10,919 nucleotides of DNA, taken from UHGV virus genome UHGV-0088977; one strand, given 5' to 3'. The notes under the pieces are model-generated. The model saw nothing but the letters and a program-made list of their open reading frames with translations, was not told the origin of the DNA and made no database searches. Positions 51 to 7,972 of the stretch are shown here, one piece after another. Position 1 is the first letter of the stretch. Each line of letters begins with the position of its first letter. Source of the DNA: a virus. The translations under genes and the position numbers were made by a program.

Positions 51-599
51 TTACCGGAGGGGTAAATTATGATTTTGCTTTTCTTCATCATAATTTTTAA
101 TTTCCATCGATAACAAGAAGCTGGGGTTGTTATTTATTTTTTGGGATATTTCTGTAAGGTTAGACCAACAGTTTGTTTCGGATTTTATTATCTTTTCGCA
201 AATAGATGCAAGCGTAGGGTAATCTTCTACGTCTAATGGTCGAATATGCATAACTCTGTTTCTTATTAGAACGAGAGAGTCCAAATCTTTGGTAATGGAT
301 TTTATGAATTTATATATGTGATCGGGAATTTCCTTTCCATTGGAATTTATGATTTGGTAAGTATCTCCAAGGTCAAAATATTCTATTAAATCAATTGATT
401 CTATACCATCCATCACAGTGCCGAGGTCTTTTTCTAGTCTTCTTTTAGCTTTTTCTAAAAGTTCGTTTGGTAGTTTTATTTCTTTATCTTCTGGCTTCAA
501 GATGTAACTTACAACTATTGAACGGAGGTCTTCCTCTAAAGCGCAAAGAAGAGCATAAACTGTCATACGGGTAAGGTTAAATGCCATGAAACTCTCCAT
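51..599 (-). CDS. Hypothetical cargo protein, 182 aa (178 aa if started at the second ATG, 587), with a HEPN-like R-N-x3-H motif (LIRNRVMH); candidate RNase-type abortive-infection/toxin effector
   Basis: Long ORF in very AT-rich DNA, where chance ORFs of this length are unlikely; motif RNRVMH near residues 113-118 fits the HEPN Rx4-6H signature with the typical polar residue after Arg; GGAGAG Shine-Dalgarno lies upstream of the second ATG (MAFNL); sits immediately distal to the integrase. Confidence 0.55.
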   Translation of the reverse strand: MESFMAFNLTRMTVYALLCALEEDLRSIVVSYILKPEDKEIKLPNELLEKAKRRLEKDLGTVMDGIESIDLIEYFDLGDTYQIINSNGKEIPDHIYKFIKSITKDLDSLVLIRNRVMHIRPLDVEDYPTLASICEKIIKSETNCWSNLTEISQKINNNPSFLLSMEIKNYDEEKQNHNLPLR

Positions 600-905: not shown

Positions 906-2033
906 TTAACATGTTATCTTCATCCAGTTTTTCCCACGATCATCATCATAACGATCAGTTTGCTGTTGTGTTTTATGCCCAAGTAGCTTCCTAGTATCTA
1001 TCCCTTGTTCTTTGTACAGGCGTTCAGATAAAGACCTTTGCTCATGGAATGTGGCAGGTGAGCCATCCCCCCAGTCAATCCCTGCTAAATCCCGTGCTTT
1101 ACTAAAATTCATCGTCAATGTATTGGATTTAACCTGTGCACCACGTTTTGCCTGTGAGGTTGAACGGAAAAAATGCACTAAGTATGGACTGACTGCATAA
1201 TCACGGCAGCGGACTACTACATCGCGTAAACTCCAGCTAATCGCGTTGAGACGAAGGGAAAGCGGGATTGCGATTTTGCTCCCGGTCTTTTCCTGAATAA
1301 CATGGAGATGATCATCCCAAATATCACTAAATTTCATACGCGAGATATCACCTAACCTCTGGCCAGTAACCAGTGCTAACAGCATGGCATTCCCCATATA
1401 ACGATGACTGGCATCTGCGATATCAAAAATTTTTTGCCATTCTTCAAGACTTAACCGTTGTCGGGTAATTTTTCTTCTGGGTTGCTTCGTTGCAAGAGCA
1501 GGGTTATACCCTGGTGGAACTTCGCCGTAATGCTGTGCTTCTTTAAACACATCGATCAATACAGACCTTACGACCTGGGCCATTCTAGGCTGTCCAGCAG
1601 AGATATACTCATCAAGTAATTGTGCTATATCTCTGACATCAACGGCTGATATCAACTTCAGTCCTGCTCGTTCCCTGAGCAAGGATACTGGTTTGGCTTT
1701 CTGTTTATAAGTGTTGAGCTTTATATCGCCACTTTTCAGTCTGTCTTCCTGGATTGCTTGATAGCGATCTAACCAGGTTGACGTTGTGATTGCTTTTCCT
1801 TTGCTGGTTGCGATCCTGTCACTGATAGCTAGAATCTGGCGGGTTCTTTGCTCAGCTAGGCGTGTATTGGCCTCAGTGGCAATAGCAATGGCTTCAGCTT
1901 CGTTTGTGCCCAAAGAATGAAACTTCCCGGTCACTGGATGCTTATATCGCCAATAAACTTTATTTACTTTTCTGCTATAGAGCGGATACAAGTTCGGGAC
2001 TGAAACATTATTCTTACGTGGTCTGGCTGCCAT
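906..2033 (-). CDS. intE: Lambda-family tyrosine recombinase / phage integrase (375 aa), e14 IntE-like
   Basis: Translation aligns by eye to lambda Int: N-terminal arm-binding region (PNLY...), catalytic region LVTGQRLGDI (Arg), HEQRSLSERLY (His/Arg) and LLGHKTQQQTDRYDDDRG (Tyr nucleophile); 20-nt overlap with the upstream excisionase ORF. The intE symbol is from memory of e14 and is not verified. Confidence 0.93.
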   Translation of the reverse strand: MAARPRKNNVSVPNLYPLYSRKVNKVYWRYKHPVTGKFHSLGTNEAEAIAIATEANTRLAEQRTRQILAISDRIATSKGKAITTSTWLDRYQAIQEDRLKSGDIKLNTYKQKAKPVSLLRERAGLKLISAVDVRDIAQLLDEYISAGQPRMAQVVRSVLIDVFKEAQHYGEVPPGYNPALATKQPRRKITRQRLSLEEWQKIFDIADASHRYMGNAMLLALVTGQRLGDISRMKFSDIWDDHLHVIQEKTGSKIAIPLSLRLNAISWSLRDVVVRCRDYAVSPYLVHFFRSTSQAKRGAQVKSNTLTMNFSKARDLAGIDWGDGSPATFHEQRSLSERLYKEQGIDTRKLLGHKTQQQTDRYDDDRGKNWMKITC

Positions 2034-2259
2034 TACTTAAAATCCTTTGTAGAATAATAGAATCACTTTTCTTAATGACAGGAGTAACTAATTCTCCAAC
2101 TAACTCTGCGTCCTCACGTACTCGCCATAGTCGACCTTGTTTCATTGCCGGTGGACAAAATAAATTCTGCTTAGCATAACGACGCAATGTGGACACACTT
2201 GGAGGGTTACTCCTAAATTTTTCCGCAGCCCATTCCTCAAGTGTCAGCATTTGAAGCAT
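2014..2259 (-). CDS. xisE: Excisionase (lambda Xis-like, 81 aa)
   Basis: MLTLEEWAAEKF...PSVSTLRRYAK...FCPPAMKQGRLW resembles lambda Xis (YLTLQEWNARQ...SLETVRRWVRE...FPPPVKDGRE); GAGG Shine-Dalgarno 8 nt before the ATG at 2259; overlaps the int start, as is typical for xis-int. Confidence 0.85.
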   Translation of the reverse strand: MLQMLTLEEWAAEKFRSNPPSVSTLRRYAKQNLFCPPAMKQGRLWRVREDAELVGELVTPVIKKSDSIILQRILSNGSQTT

Positions 2260-2313: not shown

Positions 2314-2850
2314 TTAGGATTGCTTATGCATCTTATGCAGCTCTTTAAAACGTTCCATAAACATCCCGTAGGCATGGCCCGGTGCCAGTGGAATCACGTT
2401 GAACATCTCTGTTGCCTGGATACCTTCCAGTACAGGCCAGAAAGAGCCATCATCAAGCCCGAGATCGCGGCGTTCGGTTGCCAGCATGATGAGATCGGCA
2501 TATTTCACAGGCGTGCTCATAACCGGGGGTAACCCGTATTTCTCACGGATTATGGTGTCTATTTTTTCTTCCATCCGTTTATAGTCAGGAAGAAGGCGTT
2601 TCAGTGGTGCGGGGATGTCCTGGCAATACGCTTCTGTTGCATCATGCATTAACGCTTCAAAAGCAAATTCCTGCGGTACCAGCTGGCTGCAAAGCACCGC
2701 ATGTTGGGCGACGCTGTAGAAGTGCGAAAGATGACCGGCAAAGCGACAGATATTTGAAAGGGAAACCGCGATATCGTTAATATCGATGTCGTCTTTATTT
2801 ATCCTGTCATAATAAAAATGCTTCCCAGAAAAAGTTTTAATAAATGACAT
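2314..2850 (-). CDS. yfdR: HD-domain phosphohydrolase, YfdR-like (putative 5'-deoxynucleotidase), 178 aa from the internal ATG
   Basis: H...HD signature (FAGHLSHFYSVAQHA and ALMHDATEAY); GAGGAG Shine-Dalgarno 6 nt upstream of the ATG at 2850, which gives the 178-aa product MSFIKTF..., whereas the track ORF extends to 2913 without an SD. Name is from memory of the CPS-53 yfdR gene. Confidence 0.8.
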   Translation of the reverse strand: MSFIKTFSGKHFYYDRINKDDIDINDIAVSLSNICRFAGHLSHFYSVAQHAVLCSQLVPQEFAFEALMHDATEAYCQDIPAPLKRLLPDYKRMEEKIDTIIREKYGLPPVMSTPVKYADLIMLATERRDLGLDDGSFWPVLEGIQATEMFNVIPLAPGHAYGMFMERFKELHKMHKQS

Positions 2851-2944
2851 TTTGTTCTCCTCGTTATATGCGCTGCACCGCGCTGAATTTGGGTTAAAGA
2901 AAACCCTCGCCATCAGGCGATTATTGAGTCAATTACGTTTCCAT

Positions 2945-4231: not shown

Positions 4232-4699
4232 TTTGCTGCTCCTCATCATATCGACCCTGCAAGGCCGATTAGTTTCTCCACAAAACAGAGAAGAACACCT
4301 GCGGTGGCAGCCGCCCGGATGGATTGGGTTATGAGCCCGTCGTCCGGTGATGCTCTTCTCTGTTTTGTAAAAAGGACGGTACCAGCCGGAAGCAAGAGTA
4401 CAAACTGGTACCGCCAAGACTACACACAGCATAAAGTTGTGGTGCCGGGTGCCTCCCGGTGCCTGGCGAAGGTTGCACACCAGGCGGGTGGGTATCCACA
4501 GAAGGTCGACTGTCAGCCTCAACCTTAACCCGCGTGCGCTGAGCCGCATTCACCACAACGCTAAGGATTCTCTCTGGTTGAAAATACTTAGCTGTTATGT
4601 GCCTGCTTTTAGCCACATCAGGCGAGGTGGACCTGGTTATTCCCCAACAACAAGGATTCGGTTAATCTGGTTATCCCCAACAACGCAAAAGGAAAAGAA
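4232..4699. promoter_or_regulatory. GC-rich structured non-coding island between the yfdP-like gene and the divergent 144-aa gene; probable divergent promoter and 5'-UTR region, possible ncRNA
   Basis: No convincing coding frame (the overlapping ORFs translate to P/G/S/R-rich low-complexity peptides); imperfect 17-bp inverted repeat 4281-4297/4351-4367 with a perfect 14-bp core; hairpin CCGGG-TGCCT-CCCGG near 4446-4460; GGTGCC direct repeat; CCTGG...CCAGG stem near 4462-4483. Confidence 0.4.
4633..4684 (+). repeat. Tandem direct repeat CTGGTTAT(T)CCCCAACAAC (copies at 4633-4651 and 4667-4684, 34-bp period), with a degenerate third copy at 4551-4580
   Basis: Seen directly; the second copy ends 15 nt before the ATG of the 144-aa gene and abuts its Shine-Dalgarno (AAAAGGA, 4687-4693). 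Confidence 0.6.
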
Positions 4700-5134
4700 A
4701 TGTCCGGTAATATCTATACGCTGTACAAATCCCACTGTGAAAATGTTGGAAAGTATCGGGGCATTGAAATCAGTGGGGTAGTGTCATCAGTCGAAATAAG
4801 CAAAGTTGAATCAAGGGCAACATTACTTACTCTTCTGGACCTTGTCTTACATGAGCACCGGAAGAAATTCGGCACTCCCTATAATCAGTTGAATGGGAAA
4901 AAAGCTCTGGTTCACCTTATTCTGATGAAGCATCACTGGATGCCAAAACAGATTAATGAGATGAAATTTGATGAACTTCTTCTTTCAATTCAGGATGAAC
5001 TCACGCTTGATAAAATAAGCGTAACCGCCCAGAAATTTTTAGATTATCGAGACTGGAGATCACAAATTCATCACTTTGATGATTTTGACGAAAATGAATG
5101 GGATCCTAATTTGTCTGCACAATATCTAAAGTAA
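4700..5134 (+). CDS. Hypothetical protein, 144 aa, AT-rich orphan (moron-like) gene of unknown function
   Basis: Uninterrupted 144-codon ORF in AT-rich DNA; Shine-Dalgarno AAGGA 6 nt upstream of the ATG; opposite orientation to the flanking leftward operon; plus-strand intrinsic terminator downstream at 5372-5397. No recognisable motif by eye. Confidence 0.7.
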   Translation: MSGNIYTLYKSHCENVGKYRGIEISGVVSSVEISKVESRATLLTLLDLVLHEHRKKFGTPYNQLNGKKALVHLILMKHHWMPKQINEMKFDELLLSIQDELTLDKISVTAQKFLDYRDWRSQIHHFDDFDENEWDPNLSAQYLK

Positions 5135-5312
5135 CATCCTGTGATAAAACCGTGATTTCCTGATCCAGTTTTTTTAAGGAGTCTATTGTTTCCTGTCGAT
5201 AAGACAGCACTTCACGAAGCTGGTTTATAGCTGCCAGCTTCTTTGCCATCCACTCGTAAATTTCCTCATTTGTGTATCCGGGTGCGACGATTTTTGGTTC
5301 TGTTTTGTGCAT
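5106..5312 (-). CDS. Hypothetical small protein, 68 aa (MHKTEPKIVAPGYTNEEIYEWMAKK...), hydrophilic and probably helical
   Basis: GAGGAGG Shine-Dalgarno 6 nt upstream of the ATG at 5312; the track's start at 5327 is a TTG that forms part of this SD; the 3' end overlaps the 3' end of the 144-aa gene by 29 nt in convergent orientation. Confidence 0.55.
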   Translation of the reverse strand: MHKTEPKIVAPGYTNEEIYEWMAKKLAAINQLREVLSYRQETIDSLKKLDQEITVLSQDVTLDIVQTN

Positions 5313-5371
5313 TTCACACCTCCTCAAGTTATCAGTTACTTGTTGATGGGGACCAGATTGTTAAAGAGCTA

Positions 5372-5397
5372 AGCGTCCTGTAGGGCGCTTTTTTGTT
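5372..5397 (+). terminator. Rho-independent terminator (stem AGCGTCC/GGGCGCT, loop TGTA, then a T-tract)
   Basis: 7-bp stem including one G-U pair, followed by TTTTT on the plus strand; the complementary strand would carry a C-A mismatch and a poor U-tract, so it is probably plus-strand specific. Confidence 0.6.
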
Positions 5398-5559
5398 GCT
5401 AACGAATCATCCTGGACTTCATATGCCCCAGGCGGCTACTTCGTGGGCGTCCTGCCTGTTCGTTATCTTTGATATAAAATCTAACTTAACTTAGTTATTA
5501 TGGCAAGAGAAAACACCAAACTTTTCTTAGTTCGGTGCCTTAGTTAGAGAAGAGAGGTC

Positions 5560-6186
5560 TTAGAGTTCGTATTGAACTCCTTTGACTACACCAATGATAA
5601 GGCAATTACCATTGATAGGGATGTTGGGATACCGAGGATTTAATGGCACTAAAAACTTTTGAGGGCCATCGATGACTAATTTTTTTACTGTAGCTTCGTT
5701 TGTTCCATCAAGTCGAGCGATGACTATTTTTCCATGACGAGGTTCTGCATCTGGATCTACAATCACTGTTGCGCCTTCTGGTATTGTTGGGAGGCCATTA
5801 GGGTTAGTCATGGAGTCACCTTTAACCTCTAATGCAAATGAGTTATCACCAATCTTTAATGATGTATCTACCCACTTGTCCACTTCACTAAACACTTCTG
5901 CTGCCCTGCACTCAGTAAACTGCCCAGCCTGAACCCACGATATTACAGGAACTCTGCGCATGTTTGTGACGAGTTTGCCTTCAAACTCAGCACCATAAAG
6001 AATGTAATCTATTGACGTATTGAAGAACTTCGCTAATTTCGAAAGTGCCTCCCCACCAGGGGTATTGATGTCTTTCTCCCAGTACCCCACAGCAACGTCG
6101 CTTACTCCACAAAATTTACCCAATTCTTTCTGGGACGTTCCGGTAACTCTTCTCAGAGCTTTTATACGCTGACCAACCGTTTCCAT
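5560..6186 (-). CDS. CI-like prophage repressor, XRE-type HTH fused to an S24 (LexA-like) autopeptidase domain, 208 aa
   Basis: N-terminal HTH (QKELGKFCGVSDVAVGYWEKD); C-terminal GDSM serine motif and VKKL lysine motif as in LexA/lambda CI; divergent from a Cro-like gene. Resembles e14 CohE by position, not verified. Confidence 0.9.
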   Translation of the reverse strand: METVGQRIKALRRVTGTSQKELGKFCGVSDVAVGYWEKDINTPGGEALSKLAKFFNTSIDYILYGAEFEGKLVTNMRRVPVISWVQAGQFTECRAAEVFSEVDKWVDTSLKIGDNSFALEVKGDSMTNPNGLPTIPEGATVIVDPDAEPRHGKIVIARLDGTNEATVKKLVIDGPQKFLVPLNPRYPNIPINGNCLIIGVVKGVQYEL

Positions 6187-6283
6187 AGGAGCACCATTTC
6201 TTGAATTGCTAAGTAATCTTAGTTTTTATTGACCAAAGATAGATTTGTAATTAGCATCTAATAAAACTTAGTTTGGAGGGCGT
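6187..6283. promoter_or_regulatory. Divergent repressor/cro promoter-operator region (PRM/PR-like)
   Basis: 97-bp AT-rich spacer between the divergent repressor and cro starts; near-palindromic motifs ATCTTAGTT (6216-6224) and AACTTAGTT (6265-6273) and inverted repeat CTAAGTAATCTTAG (6208-6221); candidate -35 TTGACC at 6229-6234; GGAGGG Shine-Dalgarno before the cro ATG. Confidence 0.6.
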
Positions 6284-6484
6284 ATGACAACTGACGATAT
6301 CGAAAGCTACTTCGGCAGTATTGAGAAAGTTGCTGCTTTTTTCGGCATAACAACTGAAGCCGTTTATCAGTGGCGAAACCGTCCGGGCCAGTTAATTCCA
6401 AAAGGACGTGCAGCAGAAGCTGCATATAGAACTTGCGGACGGTTGCCATTTAAACCTGAGCTTTATGAAAAATCTAATGGATAA
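6284..6484 (+). CDS. Cro-like small HTH regulator (66 aa)
   Basis: Small basic protein with an HTH-like segment (VAAFFGITTEAVYQWRNRPGQ); strong Shine-Dalgarno; divergent from the repressor; same length as the e14 Cro-like gene as I recall it. Confidence 0.8.
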   Translation: MTTDDIESYFGSIEKVAAFFGITTEAVYQWRNRPGQLIPKGRAAEAAYRTCGRLPFKPELYEKSNG

Positions 6485-7073
6485 ATCGATTAACAGAAAC
6501 CACAGAACGATGAGGTTAACCGTGGGTAAGCATCACTGGAAAGTAGAAAAACAGCCTGAGTGGTACGTGAAAGCTGTCAGAAAAACTATCGCAGCGTTGC
6601 CGGGTGGTTACGCTGAAGCAGCTGACTGGCTGGATGTAACAGAAAACGCATTATTTAACCGCCTTCGTGCCGATGGCGATCAGATTTTCCCGCTGGGATG
6701 GGCAATGATTTTGCAACGTGCTGGTGGAACTCACTTCATTGCTGACGCTGTGGCGCAGTCTGCAAATGGCGTCTTTGTGTCTCTTCCTGACGTCGAGGAT
6801 GTGGACAACGCCGATATTAACCAGCGCCTGCTGGAAGTCATTGAACAGATTGGCAGTTATTCCAGACAGATTCGTTCGGCAATCGAAGACGGTGTGGTGG
6901 AACCGCATGAGAAGACAGCAATTAACGACGAGCTGTATCTCTCAATTTCGAAGCTGCAGGAGCATGCAGCACTGGTCTACAAAATCTTTTGCATTTCAGA
7001 AAGTAATGACGCCCGCGAGTGTGCAGCTCCGGGCGCCGTGGCGTGTCGTGACTGTGGAGAAACTAACGCATGA
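6465..7073 (+). CDS. Early regulatory protein, YmfL/YdaT-like by position and size (about 200 aa); start uncertain (6465 or 6477)
   Basis: ORF immediately after and overlapping the cro stop, suggesting translational coupling; no clear Shine-Dalgarno; ATGA overlap with the next gene. Assignment rests on synteny with e14 as I recall it. Confidence 0.6.
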
Positions 7074-7417: not shown

Positions 7418-7972
7418 ATGAGCACTAAATTAACCGGCTATGTATGGGATGGTTGCGCTGCATCAGGCATGAAATTATCCAGCGTGGCAATTATGGCCCG
7501 CCTGGCTGATTTCAGTAATGACGAAGGTGTGTGCTGGCCATCAATTGAAACCATTGCCCGTCAGATTGGCGCGGGGATGAGTACCGTCAGGACGGCTATC
7601 GCACGGCTGGAAGCAGAAGGCTGGTTAACGCGTAAGGCGCGTCGCCAGGGTACGGGGGCAGGCTGTATTGCGCGTGCTGACTTTGAAGCCCGACAACGGG
7701 CGGCGCGGACGGATGAAACCACCTATGTGGTGCAGGGCTGGCGACAGGGTAACGGTACGCTGTGGCAGCCCAACCAGCGGGTGATTGTCTTTGATCCGGT
7801 CTGTGGTTTCGACAATACCGAACTGCTTGTTTCGGAAGTCACGTTTACTCAGGACCAGAACGGCACCCTGACGGAAATCCGTGTCGGCCCGCCTGATGCT
7901 TATCTGCCTGAACCCGAAGCCCCCGGCGCGCGGAAAAAGAAAAAAGCCAGAGTACAGGAGGACCCGTTCTGA
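7418..7972 (+). CDS. Apparently chimeric ORF (184 aa): N-terminal HTH/replication-initiator-like domain joined to a C-terminal fragment resembling the end of a Mu gp44-type baseplate hub protein; probable deletion-fusion
   Basis: N-terminus (SSVAIMARLADFSNDEGVCWPSIETIARQIGAGMSTVRTAIARLEAEGWL) looks like a phage O/HTH protein; the composition changes around residue 95, and the C-terminus runs straight into the baseplate V gene with TGATG stop/start coupling. Confidence 0.6.
   Translation: MSTKLTGYVWDGCAASGMKLSSVAIMARLADFSNDEGVCWPSIETIARQIGAGMSTVRTAIARLEAEGWLTRKARRQGTGAGCIARADFEARQRAARTDETTYVVQGWRQGNGTLWQPNQRVIVFDPVCGFDNTELLVSEVTFTQDQNGTLTEIRVGPPDAYLPEPEAPGARKKKKARVQEDPF

Follow-up and report, generated by a model that had tools for sequence, protein, structure and literature searches.

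A conserved convergent gene pair in a candidate fixed-end cargo slot downstream of a predicted leftward early promoter

The virus genome UHGV-0088977, a stretch of 10,919 nucleotides (nt) that we call the window, carries two genes that meet tail to tail: a gene of 144 amino acids (aa) on the plus strand and a gene of 68 aa on the minus strand, with overlapping 3' ends. The original prediction held that antisense coupling is built into this pair. The question raised by the locus is whether the arrangement couples the expression of the two genes, and whether it belongs to the pair itself or to the place where the pair resides. That place is, by sequence comparison, an SfIV/SfV/e14-type prophage at the e14 (intE/xisE) site of E. 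coli. Region 4550-5560 is 100% identical to the chromosome of E. coli ML35; its identity to Shigella phage SfIV, and likewise to several E. coli phages, is 98.8%. The features on which the argument leans are the following, where pL denotes the predicted leftward early promoter:

4599-4687, plus strand: left-end element of the slot, presumed promoter and 5'-leader region for plus-strand cargo (conserved before differing cargo)
4700-5134, plus strand: 144-aa gene, a phage-associated protein of the ECs1072 family (NF033230, phrog_5286)
5106-5312, minus strand: 68-aa gene, a small early protein of the YdfC family and first gene of the pL operon (phrog_1744, identity to YdfC, position of the partner)
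5169-5175: A7 homopolymer (T7 on the plus strand) within the 68-aa reading frame, a frameshift hot spot (A8 in E. albertii; partial-length clusters)
5319-5325, minus strand: Shine-Dalgarno sequence GAGGAGG of the 68-aa gene (direct reading; cctcctc on the plus strand, 6 nt before the ATG)
5358-5369, minus strand: rrn-type boxA GCUCUUUAACAA in the pL leader RNA (exact consensus match)
5371-5397, plus strand: intrinsic terminator for plus-strand cargo transcripts, whose complement is the hairpin before boxA in the pL RNA (terminator scan, folding, reuse after other cargo)
5403-5465, minus strand: structured leader RNA of about 65 nt directly downstream of pL (conservation and covariation)
5478-5549, minus strand: pL-like promoter and operator repeats (-35 TTGCCA at 5506-5501, -10 TAGATT at 5483-5478)

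Both open reading frames (ORFs) are real, conserved genes. The 144-aa protein matches the NCBIfam profile NF033230 over its full length (residues 4-144; 157.8 bits, cut-off 70) and phrog_5286 with an E value of 1.5e-90. An exhaustive search returned relatives in 65 clusters, about 145-150 aa long, in which H72 and W134 are invariant. The AlphaFold model of the protein is confident and all-helical (predicted local distance difference test, pLDDT, 93.7), and no structural relative was found in the PDB or BFVD. Pfam gave nothing across all 40 family members tested, PADLOC gave nothing for either the 144-aa or the 68-aa protein, and scans of viral contigs using P0071 and P0073 gave no matches. A literature search returned no paper on either protein, with ECs1072 named merely as an entry in a microarray table.

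For the smaller gene, the minus-strand ORF as listed (5106-5327) begins at TTG; the ATG at 5312 gives 68 aa, the same as the PGAP annotation in ML35. The strong Shine-Dalgarno sequence that had been reported for it is indeed present. Its product matches phrog_1744 (E = 4.8e-34, residues 1-68), shows 38-39% identity to annotated YdfC of Qin/dicB-type operons, is hydrophilic and predicted helical, and matches no Pfam model. YdfC is a promoter-proximal protein of the Qin dicB operon (PMC5069750). The homopolymer makes the 68-aa frame prone to frameshifts. A close additional copy of the pair in E. albertii (L010) has A8 instead of A7, a frameshift that yields an 80-aa product, and many E. coli clusters (P0048-P0057) match just the first ~70% of the 68-aa protein. 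In the clusters with a frameshifted small ORF, the large gene is intact. Two further candidates for diverged small proteins, P0046 and P0068, were rejected as indel-laden assemblies of the same cassette.

The two genes share 29 nt at their 3' ends (5106-5134), as originally described. We compared this arrangement across seven lineages, the window being one, and found that the 68-aa frame is conserved in related elements, with a homologous partner of the large gene in each of the other six. The source of each, the identities of its large and small proteins to the window proteins, and the 3' overlap are:

L011, metagenome: 52% and 50%, overlap 44 nt
L020, genome assembly: 38% and 38%, overlap 95 nt
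L021, assembled sequencing run: 38% and 39%, overlap 35 nt
L030, IMG/VR: 36% and 32%, overlap 32 nt
L036, IMG/VR: 28% and 25%, overlap 62 nt
L059, IMG/VR: 34% and 36%, overlap 29 nt

Large-protein and small-protein identities rise and fall together (r = 0.69 over the 21 lineage pairs), and the pair-bearing lineages differ in repressor, operators and leader. This parallel divergence amid changing surroundings shows that the two genes were inherited together, and the convergent pair is therefore an anciently linked unit. Wherever an ECs1072 homologue lies in the slot or adjoins the repressor gene, the YdfC-like ORF is convergent and 3'-overlapping.

The linkage is not obligatory on either side. 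YdfC occurs without an ECs1072 partner in Qin/dicB-type operons, and ECs1072 homologues occur without a YdfC-like partner in L009, at a chromosomal site in L022, beside the terminase in L024 and between Q and holin in L026. In the three of these that have prophage settings (L009, L024 and L026), the gene is oriented opposite to the flanking phage genes, and in L009 it is faced by a leftward boxA copy with one mismatch. The L009 homologue is absent from the E. coli genomes searched, so that the Sakai ECs1072 context was not recovered by this route. To the right of the same lone homologue lies a 66-nt non-coding stretch (L009 4635-4700) that matches 917 E. coli genomes at 90-94% identity.

As to the place where the pair resides, the comparison points to a fixed-end expression slot for mostly reverse-oriented cargo, just downstream of the leftward early promoter. 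The flanks 4550-4630 and 5403-5462 are shared, and the content between them swapped, in SfV, SfII, K-12 e14, ST64B, YeP1, AH07, PhiR29_1 and mEp460, a set that includes Yersinia, Pantoea and Citrobacter phages. The terminator block recurs in PhiR29_1, directly 3' of an unrelated 242-aa plus-strand gene; its distance from the plus-strand cargo genes that it follows is, for example, 14-44 nt. A pattern scan found the terminator/boxA block in at least 120 IMG/VR contigs, and cargo was classified in 80 contigs that were fetched. The ECs1072/YdfC pair occupied 34 of the 80 and other cargo 38; the left flank was too short to classify in seven, and one had only a weak ECs1072-like ORF. There were at least eight types of cargo; in most contigs with other cargo, 14-220 nt separate the end of a plus-strand gene from the block. 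Examples are a coiled-coil protein of ~150-165 aa, a membrane protein with two transmembrane segments (2TM) after a short ORF, a secreted protein, and a DUF2971 protein with a match (E = 3e-16) to PDC-S31, a candidate defence family in PADLOC. Among the cargo surveyed, a conserved partner gene on the pL strand was found only in the ECs1072/YdfC type, and the distinctive trait of this cargo is a pL-strand gene between the plus-strand stop codon and the slot terminator. The block itself is followed by several unrelated right flanks, and the usual leader is missing in 20 of the 80 contigs.

The left end of the slot is conserved as well. It carries an inverted repeat GCCTG...CAGGC as well as the direct repeat GGTTAT(T)CCCCAACAAC in two copies (4635-4651 and 4669-4684), precedes at least five unrelated plus-strand cargo genes, and was present in 54 of 68 IMG/VR loci. 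It is also found upstream of ECs1072 homologues at 52-56% protein identity. Its conservation before different cargo suggests expression signals. The G+C content of the cassette is 0.40, compared with 0.48 for the window.

Convergent pairs seem to recur in this slot. In K-12 e14 (L008 5498-6085) it holds an unrelated convergent pair, ymfI (plus) and ymfJ (minus), with a 63-nt overlap, and Yersinia phage YeP1 and Pantoea phage AH07 have small convergent pairs in the same position. The genes ymfI, ymfJ and SfV orf33, which occupy the slot elsewhere, were considered as relatives of the 144-aa and 68-aa proteins and rejected as unrelated.

The right end of the slot, 5350-5397, is strand-asymmetric: read on the plus strand, it forms an intrinsic terminator, whereas in the pL direction a hairpin comes first and then an exact rrn-type boxA. 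The stem-loop AAGCGTCCTGTAGGGCGCTT at 5371-5390 has 8 pairs, 5 of them G-C, and is followed by a T-run. A scan of 4400-6600 found 7 terminator-like sites where 2.2 were expected; the one at 5371-5397 ranked highest, and no other plus-strand site comes between it and the 144-aa stop. It had been taken for the only plus-strand terminator. It is the first and the strongest, but a weaker terminator-like site follows at 5443-5459. The hairpin energies on the plus and minus strands, for five sequence versions, were -11.5/-7.5, -8.6/-4.0, -11.0/-7.4, -11.5/-7.5 and -17.0/-8.2 kcal/mol, favouring the plus strand by 3.6-8.8 kcal/mol in all five. This difference arises because a G-U wobble on one strand is a C-A mismatch on the other, and the more stable plus-strand fold therefore argues for a plus-strand terminator. 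The loop sequences vary between copies of the block. The T7 run at 5169-5175 was rejected as an earlier plus-strand terminator, since no G+C-rich hairpin precedes it.

Since no terminator-like site occurs before 5371, any transcript of the 144-aa gene would be antisense to the entire 68-aa mRNA, including its ribosome-binding site. The same geometry, anticipated in the original prediction, recurs in every lineage scanned, the first plus-strand terminator lying beyond the start of the small gene. It is a direct outcome of the 3' overlap, since a terminator has no non-coding stretch to occupy. The proposal that antisense coupling is built into the pair is thus upheld in its geometry, the convergent arrangement being conserved in seven lineages, but not in its attribution: the antisense geometry is automatic from the overlap, and the terminator is the generic end of the slot rather than a device of the pair.

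On the opposite strand, operator repeats of the type CTAAG-N4-CTTAG are common to 5481-5549 and the cI/cro intergenic region (6209-6271). Because the leftward promoter sits among these shared repeats, the 68-aa gene is indeed the first leftward early gene, as had been proposed. The leader that follows the promoter is conserved behind different promoters and operators in SfV, K-12 e14, ST64B, YeP1, AH07, phiNP and mEp460, again including Yersinia, Pantoea and Citrobacter phages, and 3 of its 16 predicted pairs show compensatory changes. Set against the HK022 put RNA, a structured RNA of about 70 nt directly after pL, it is structured, with covariation, and lies directly after pL, but it has no sequence similarity to the HK022 pL region. 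The leader is a candidate for a cis-acting, put-like processivity element in phages that lack N.

Next in the predicted pL transcript comes the block, which reads AAAAAAGCGCCCUACAGGACGCUU-A-GCUCUUUAACAAUCUGG in the pL sense, hairpin then boxA. The boxA GCTCTTTAACAA (5358-5369, minus strand) is the sole exact match in the window, and 13 nt (GCTCTTTAACAAT) are identical to the boxA of the E. coli K-12 rrnB leader, where the order is also hairpin then boxA. It lies ~100 nt from the predicted pL start and 32 nt upstream of the Shine-Dalgarno sequence of the 68-aa gene, and it is conserved in L010, L011, L016, L030 and IMG/VR loci, wherever the block occurs. The sequences examined showed no second boxA copy behind the rightward promoter. 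Beyond the stop codon of the 68-aa gene, a transcript from pL would run for ~870 nt without a credible ORF before yfdP, across the antisense of the 144-aa gene, the left-end element and an STnc100-like RNA. SfIV-type phages have been reported to lack an N homologue (PMC3851460), and the 68-aa protein was searched for an arginine-rich, N-like motif at its N-terminus with no such motif found. With no N, no such motif and ~870 nt of untranslated RNA, normally a target of Rho, an rrn-type anti-termination role involving Nus factors would be the simplest reading of this boxA.

The STnc100-like RNA (4366-4589, minus strand) lies within the pL transcript between the cassette and yfdP. It matches the Rfam family STnc100, a Gammaproteobacterial small RNA, over the full model length (E = 7e-7) with 43.5 bits against a gathering score of 47. 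The ORFs annotated across it, namely the N-terminal extension of SfIV_34, SfIV_35 and a 'frameshifted' ML35 pseudogene, are probably spurious. At the corresponding position in L021 (~2820-2900, minus strand), upstream of the ECs1072 homologue, a tRNA-like sequence was seen by eye.

Taken together, the observed anatomy, conservation and modularity lead us to a reading to which we give a probability of roughly 0.5: the pair forms a cargo cassette in reverse orientation that is probably expressed in the lysogen and, by convergent transcription, excludes expression from pL. Promoter, transcripts, Nus dependence and protein roles enter this reading as conditional elements. In the lysogen, pL would be shut off by cI, and the left-end element would drive transcription of the 144-aa gene. 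The transcript would continue antisense over the whole 68-aa mRNA and its ribosome-binding site and end at the terminator, so that the pL/cI region would be shielded. Upon induction, transcription from pL would cross the 68-aa gene and then, in antisense, the 144-aa gene. The boxA and Nus factors would protect this transcript from Rho over the ~870 nt of untranslated RNA, and it would reach the small-RNA-like element, yfdPQR, xis and int. Transcription from pL would also silence the 144-aa gene, both by collision and by pairing of antisense RNA. The outcome would be mutually exclusive expression of the 144-aa and 68-aa genes, by the same logic as in other convergent arrangements of phage switch regions.

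Several points weigh against this scheme. Plus-strand transcription of the 144-aa gene is an assumption, and a consensus scan found no sigma-70 promoter in the left-end element or upstream of the gene. Rho could stop a plus-strand transcript before 5371. The conserved antisense geometry, being automatic from the overlap, is by itself no proof of a regulatory role. L020 and L021 carry the pair without the boxA block, and boxA is thus not essential to the pair. Finally, a boxA near a ribosome-binding site can have a repressive effect on translation and favour termination by Rho, as suhB shows (PMC12360218); given this precedent, the boxA here might act with either sign.

The alternative that survives best, although we regard it as unlikely, is that there is no functional coupling at all. 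Nothing would set the 68-aa gene apart from other early genes, or the 144-aa gene from other reverse-oriented morons, with overlap and antisense arising from genome compaction and the terminator serving only to insulate pL/cI. The generic nature of the terminator in the slot, the automatic geometry, the independent existence of both families and the variable overlap length (29-95 nt) all agree with this explanation. Nevertheless, two unrelated families have remained convergent and overlapping at 25-38% identity, across differing immunity regions and leaders, which is hard to explain without selection. Moreover, convergent overlapping transcription units interfere whenever both are active.

Slightly less likely still is a defence gene with its antidote. 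Here the 144-aa protein would be an exclusion or abortive-infection factor expressed in the lysogen, and the 68-aa protein, made first from pL at induction, would neutralise it as a protein so that the prophage can grow; the two proteins would make up a module of the toxin/antitoxin-like or self-immunity kind. The tight and ancient linkage, with parallel divergence in seven lineages, speaks for this explanation, as do the restriction of a conserved pL-strand partner to this cargo type among the cargo surveyed and the position of the partner gene as the very first on pL. Other cargo of the slot is also defence-like (PDC-S31, 2TM membrane proteins), and exclusion genes, rexAB and sieB among them, are known to lie beside the repressor. 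Against it stand the ECs1072 homologues without a YdfC-like partner (L009, L022, L024 and L026), YdfC without ECs1072 in Qin/dicB-type operons, and the lack of a PADLOC, Pfam or known-fold match for either protein. Frameshifts in the small ORF are also frequent in E. coli clusters that keep the large gene intact, which would be odd for an essential antidote. A broader version, which we consider improbable, would make the ECs1072 protein an anti-phage effector, the YdfC protein its cognate antidote, the lone YdfC of Qin/dicB-type phages a counter-defence, and the slot with its terminator/boxA block a general expression site for defence cargo in lambdoid prophages lacking N.

The original prediction had also suggested a toxin/antitoxin-like or exclusion module. 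An exclusion module is possible. A toxin/antitoxin system is not supported; what the pair has in common with one is the close linkage of two small genes on a mobile element and an antisense relation as in type I systems. Unlike type II systems, the pair is convergent rather than co-transcribed as a co-directional bicistronic operon, matches no toxin or antitoxin family and gives no Pfam or PADLOC match, and its partners are not obligatory, each family also occurring alone. Type I (hok/sok-like) systems have a small hydrophobic toxin and a dedicated antisense small RNA with its own promoter, whereas the 68-aa protein is hydrophilic and the scan showed no internal promoter-like site on the plus strand. 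The weakest of the suggestions, a short plus-strand antisense RNA like lambda OOP that would run from within or just upstream of the 68-aa 5' end to 5397 and target the 68-aa ribosome-binding site, is very unlikely: a good plus-strand terminator does lie just past that site, but a scan for consensus promoters found no plus-strand candidate in 5135-5370, the same terminator directly follows coding genes in other prophages, and the block is ~250 nt from the small ORF start in L030 and absent in L021.

Returning to convergent exclusion in a cargo slot, the finding is best filed as a combination of a moron with control by convergent transcription. Like the lambda bor/lom and HK97 morons, genes that bring their own promoter and terminator when inserted among phage genes, the cassette varies among close relatives, has a lower G+C content, has its own intrinsic terminator, opposes the surrounding operon in orientation and is presumably expressed from the prophage. 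Unlike in morons, many different cargo genes share the same fixed elements on their promoter and terminator sides, the terminator is at the same time a boxA element for the operon running the other way, and the cargo has a second, opposite-strand gene between its stop codon and the terminator. With lambda OOP/cII, P22 sar/ant and the pR/pL interference of coliphage 186, the locus would share an RNA, encoded beside the immunity region, that is fully antisense to an early gene, both its ribosome-binding site and its coding sequence. In contrast to these, the putative antisense RNA would be a 3' untranslated extension of a protein-coding mRNA, with no dedicated small RNA and no internal promoter found.

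The pL side resembles the rrn leader (boxB hairpin, boxA, boxC) and lambda nut in its exact boxA GCUCUUUAACAA(U), in the hairpin directly upstream as in rrnB, and in its promoter-proximal position in a transcript that would cross long untranslated RNA. It differs in that the phage group is reported to have no N protein, no boxC was identified, and the hairpin, weakened on the pL strand, is a terminator when read from the plus strand. It also differs from lambda N-type antitermination in that the first pL product, the 68-aa protein, is not arginine-rich and N-like. The Qin dicB operon (ydfA-ydfB-ydfC-dicF-dicB) has a homologous small protein, likewise promoter-proximal in a repressor-controlled leftward operon, whereas Qin-type operons have no convergent ECs1072-family partner and no boxA/terminator block. 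Two additions did not turn up in our literature search: a reusable slot with conserved ends, and a bifunctional terminator/boxA block.

The remaining map of the window was built from the RefSeq annotation of ML35 together with Pfam and PHROG scans. The ML35 locus has intE, xisE, yfdR/Q/P, a LexA-family repressor and Cro all present, and the corresponding features of the window are:

906-2033, minus strand: integrase (RefSeq ML35, Pfam/PHROG)
2014-2259, minus strand: excisionase (RefSeq ML35, Pfam/PHROG)
Minus strand: yfdR, yfdQ and yfdP (RefSeq ML35, Pfam/PHROG)
5560-6186, minus strand: LexA-type repressor (RefSeq ML35, Pfam/PHROG)
6284-6484, plus strand: Cro, then a CII-like gene

Further right, the map shows a replication-gene fragment joined to Mu-type baseplate genes, and the prophage is therefore deleted and defective. 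In the ORF at 7418-7972 (plus strand), an O-like replication helix-turn-helix domain (HTH_36, residues 23-70) is joined to the fourth domain of the Mu baseplate protein GpP (residues 84-165). This ORF is the deletion joint: most of what lay between the replication genes and the tail genes of the prophage was lost here. At the other end, the 182-aa ORF at 51-599 (minus strand) adjoins the integrase, at the attachment-site end of the prophage. It is one end of a larger tetratricopeptide-repeat protein that continues beyond the window in ML35. PADLOC gave a match to its candidate defence family PDC-M34B (E = 1.2e-10).

If the proposed reading is true, the slot, easily recognised by its left-end element and ~45-nt block and widespread (at least 120 viral contigs), could be mined for genes expressed in lysogens, including candidate defence genes. 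One short sequence would serve both strands, insulating the immunity region from cargo transcription and giving the early operon of phages lacking N a host-type (rrn) anti-termination signal. The common prophage families ECs1072 and YdfC, travelling as a convergent overlapping unit, would thereby gain their first functional context.

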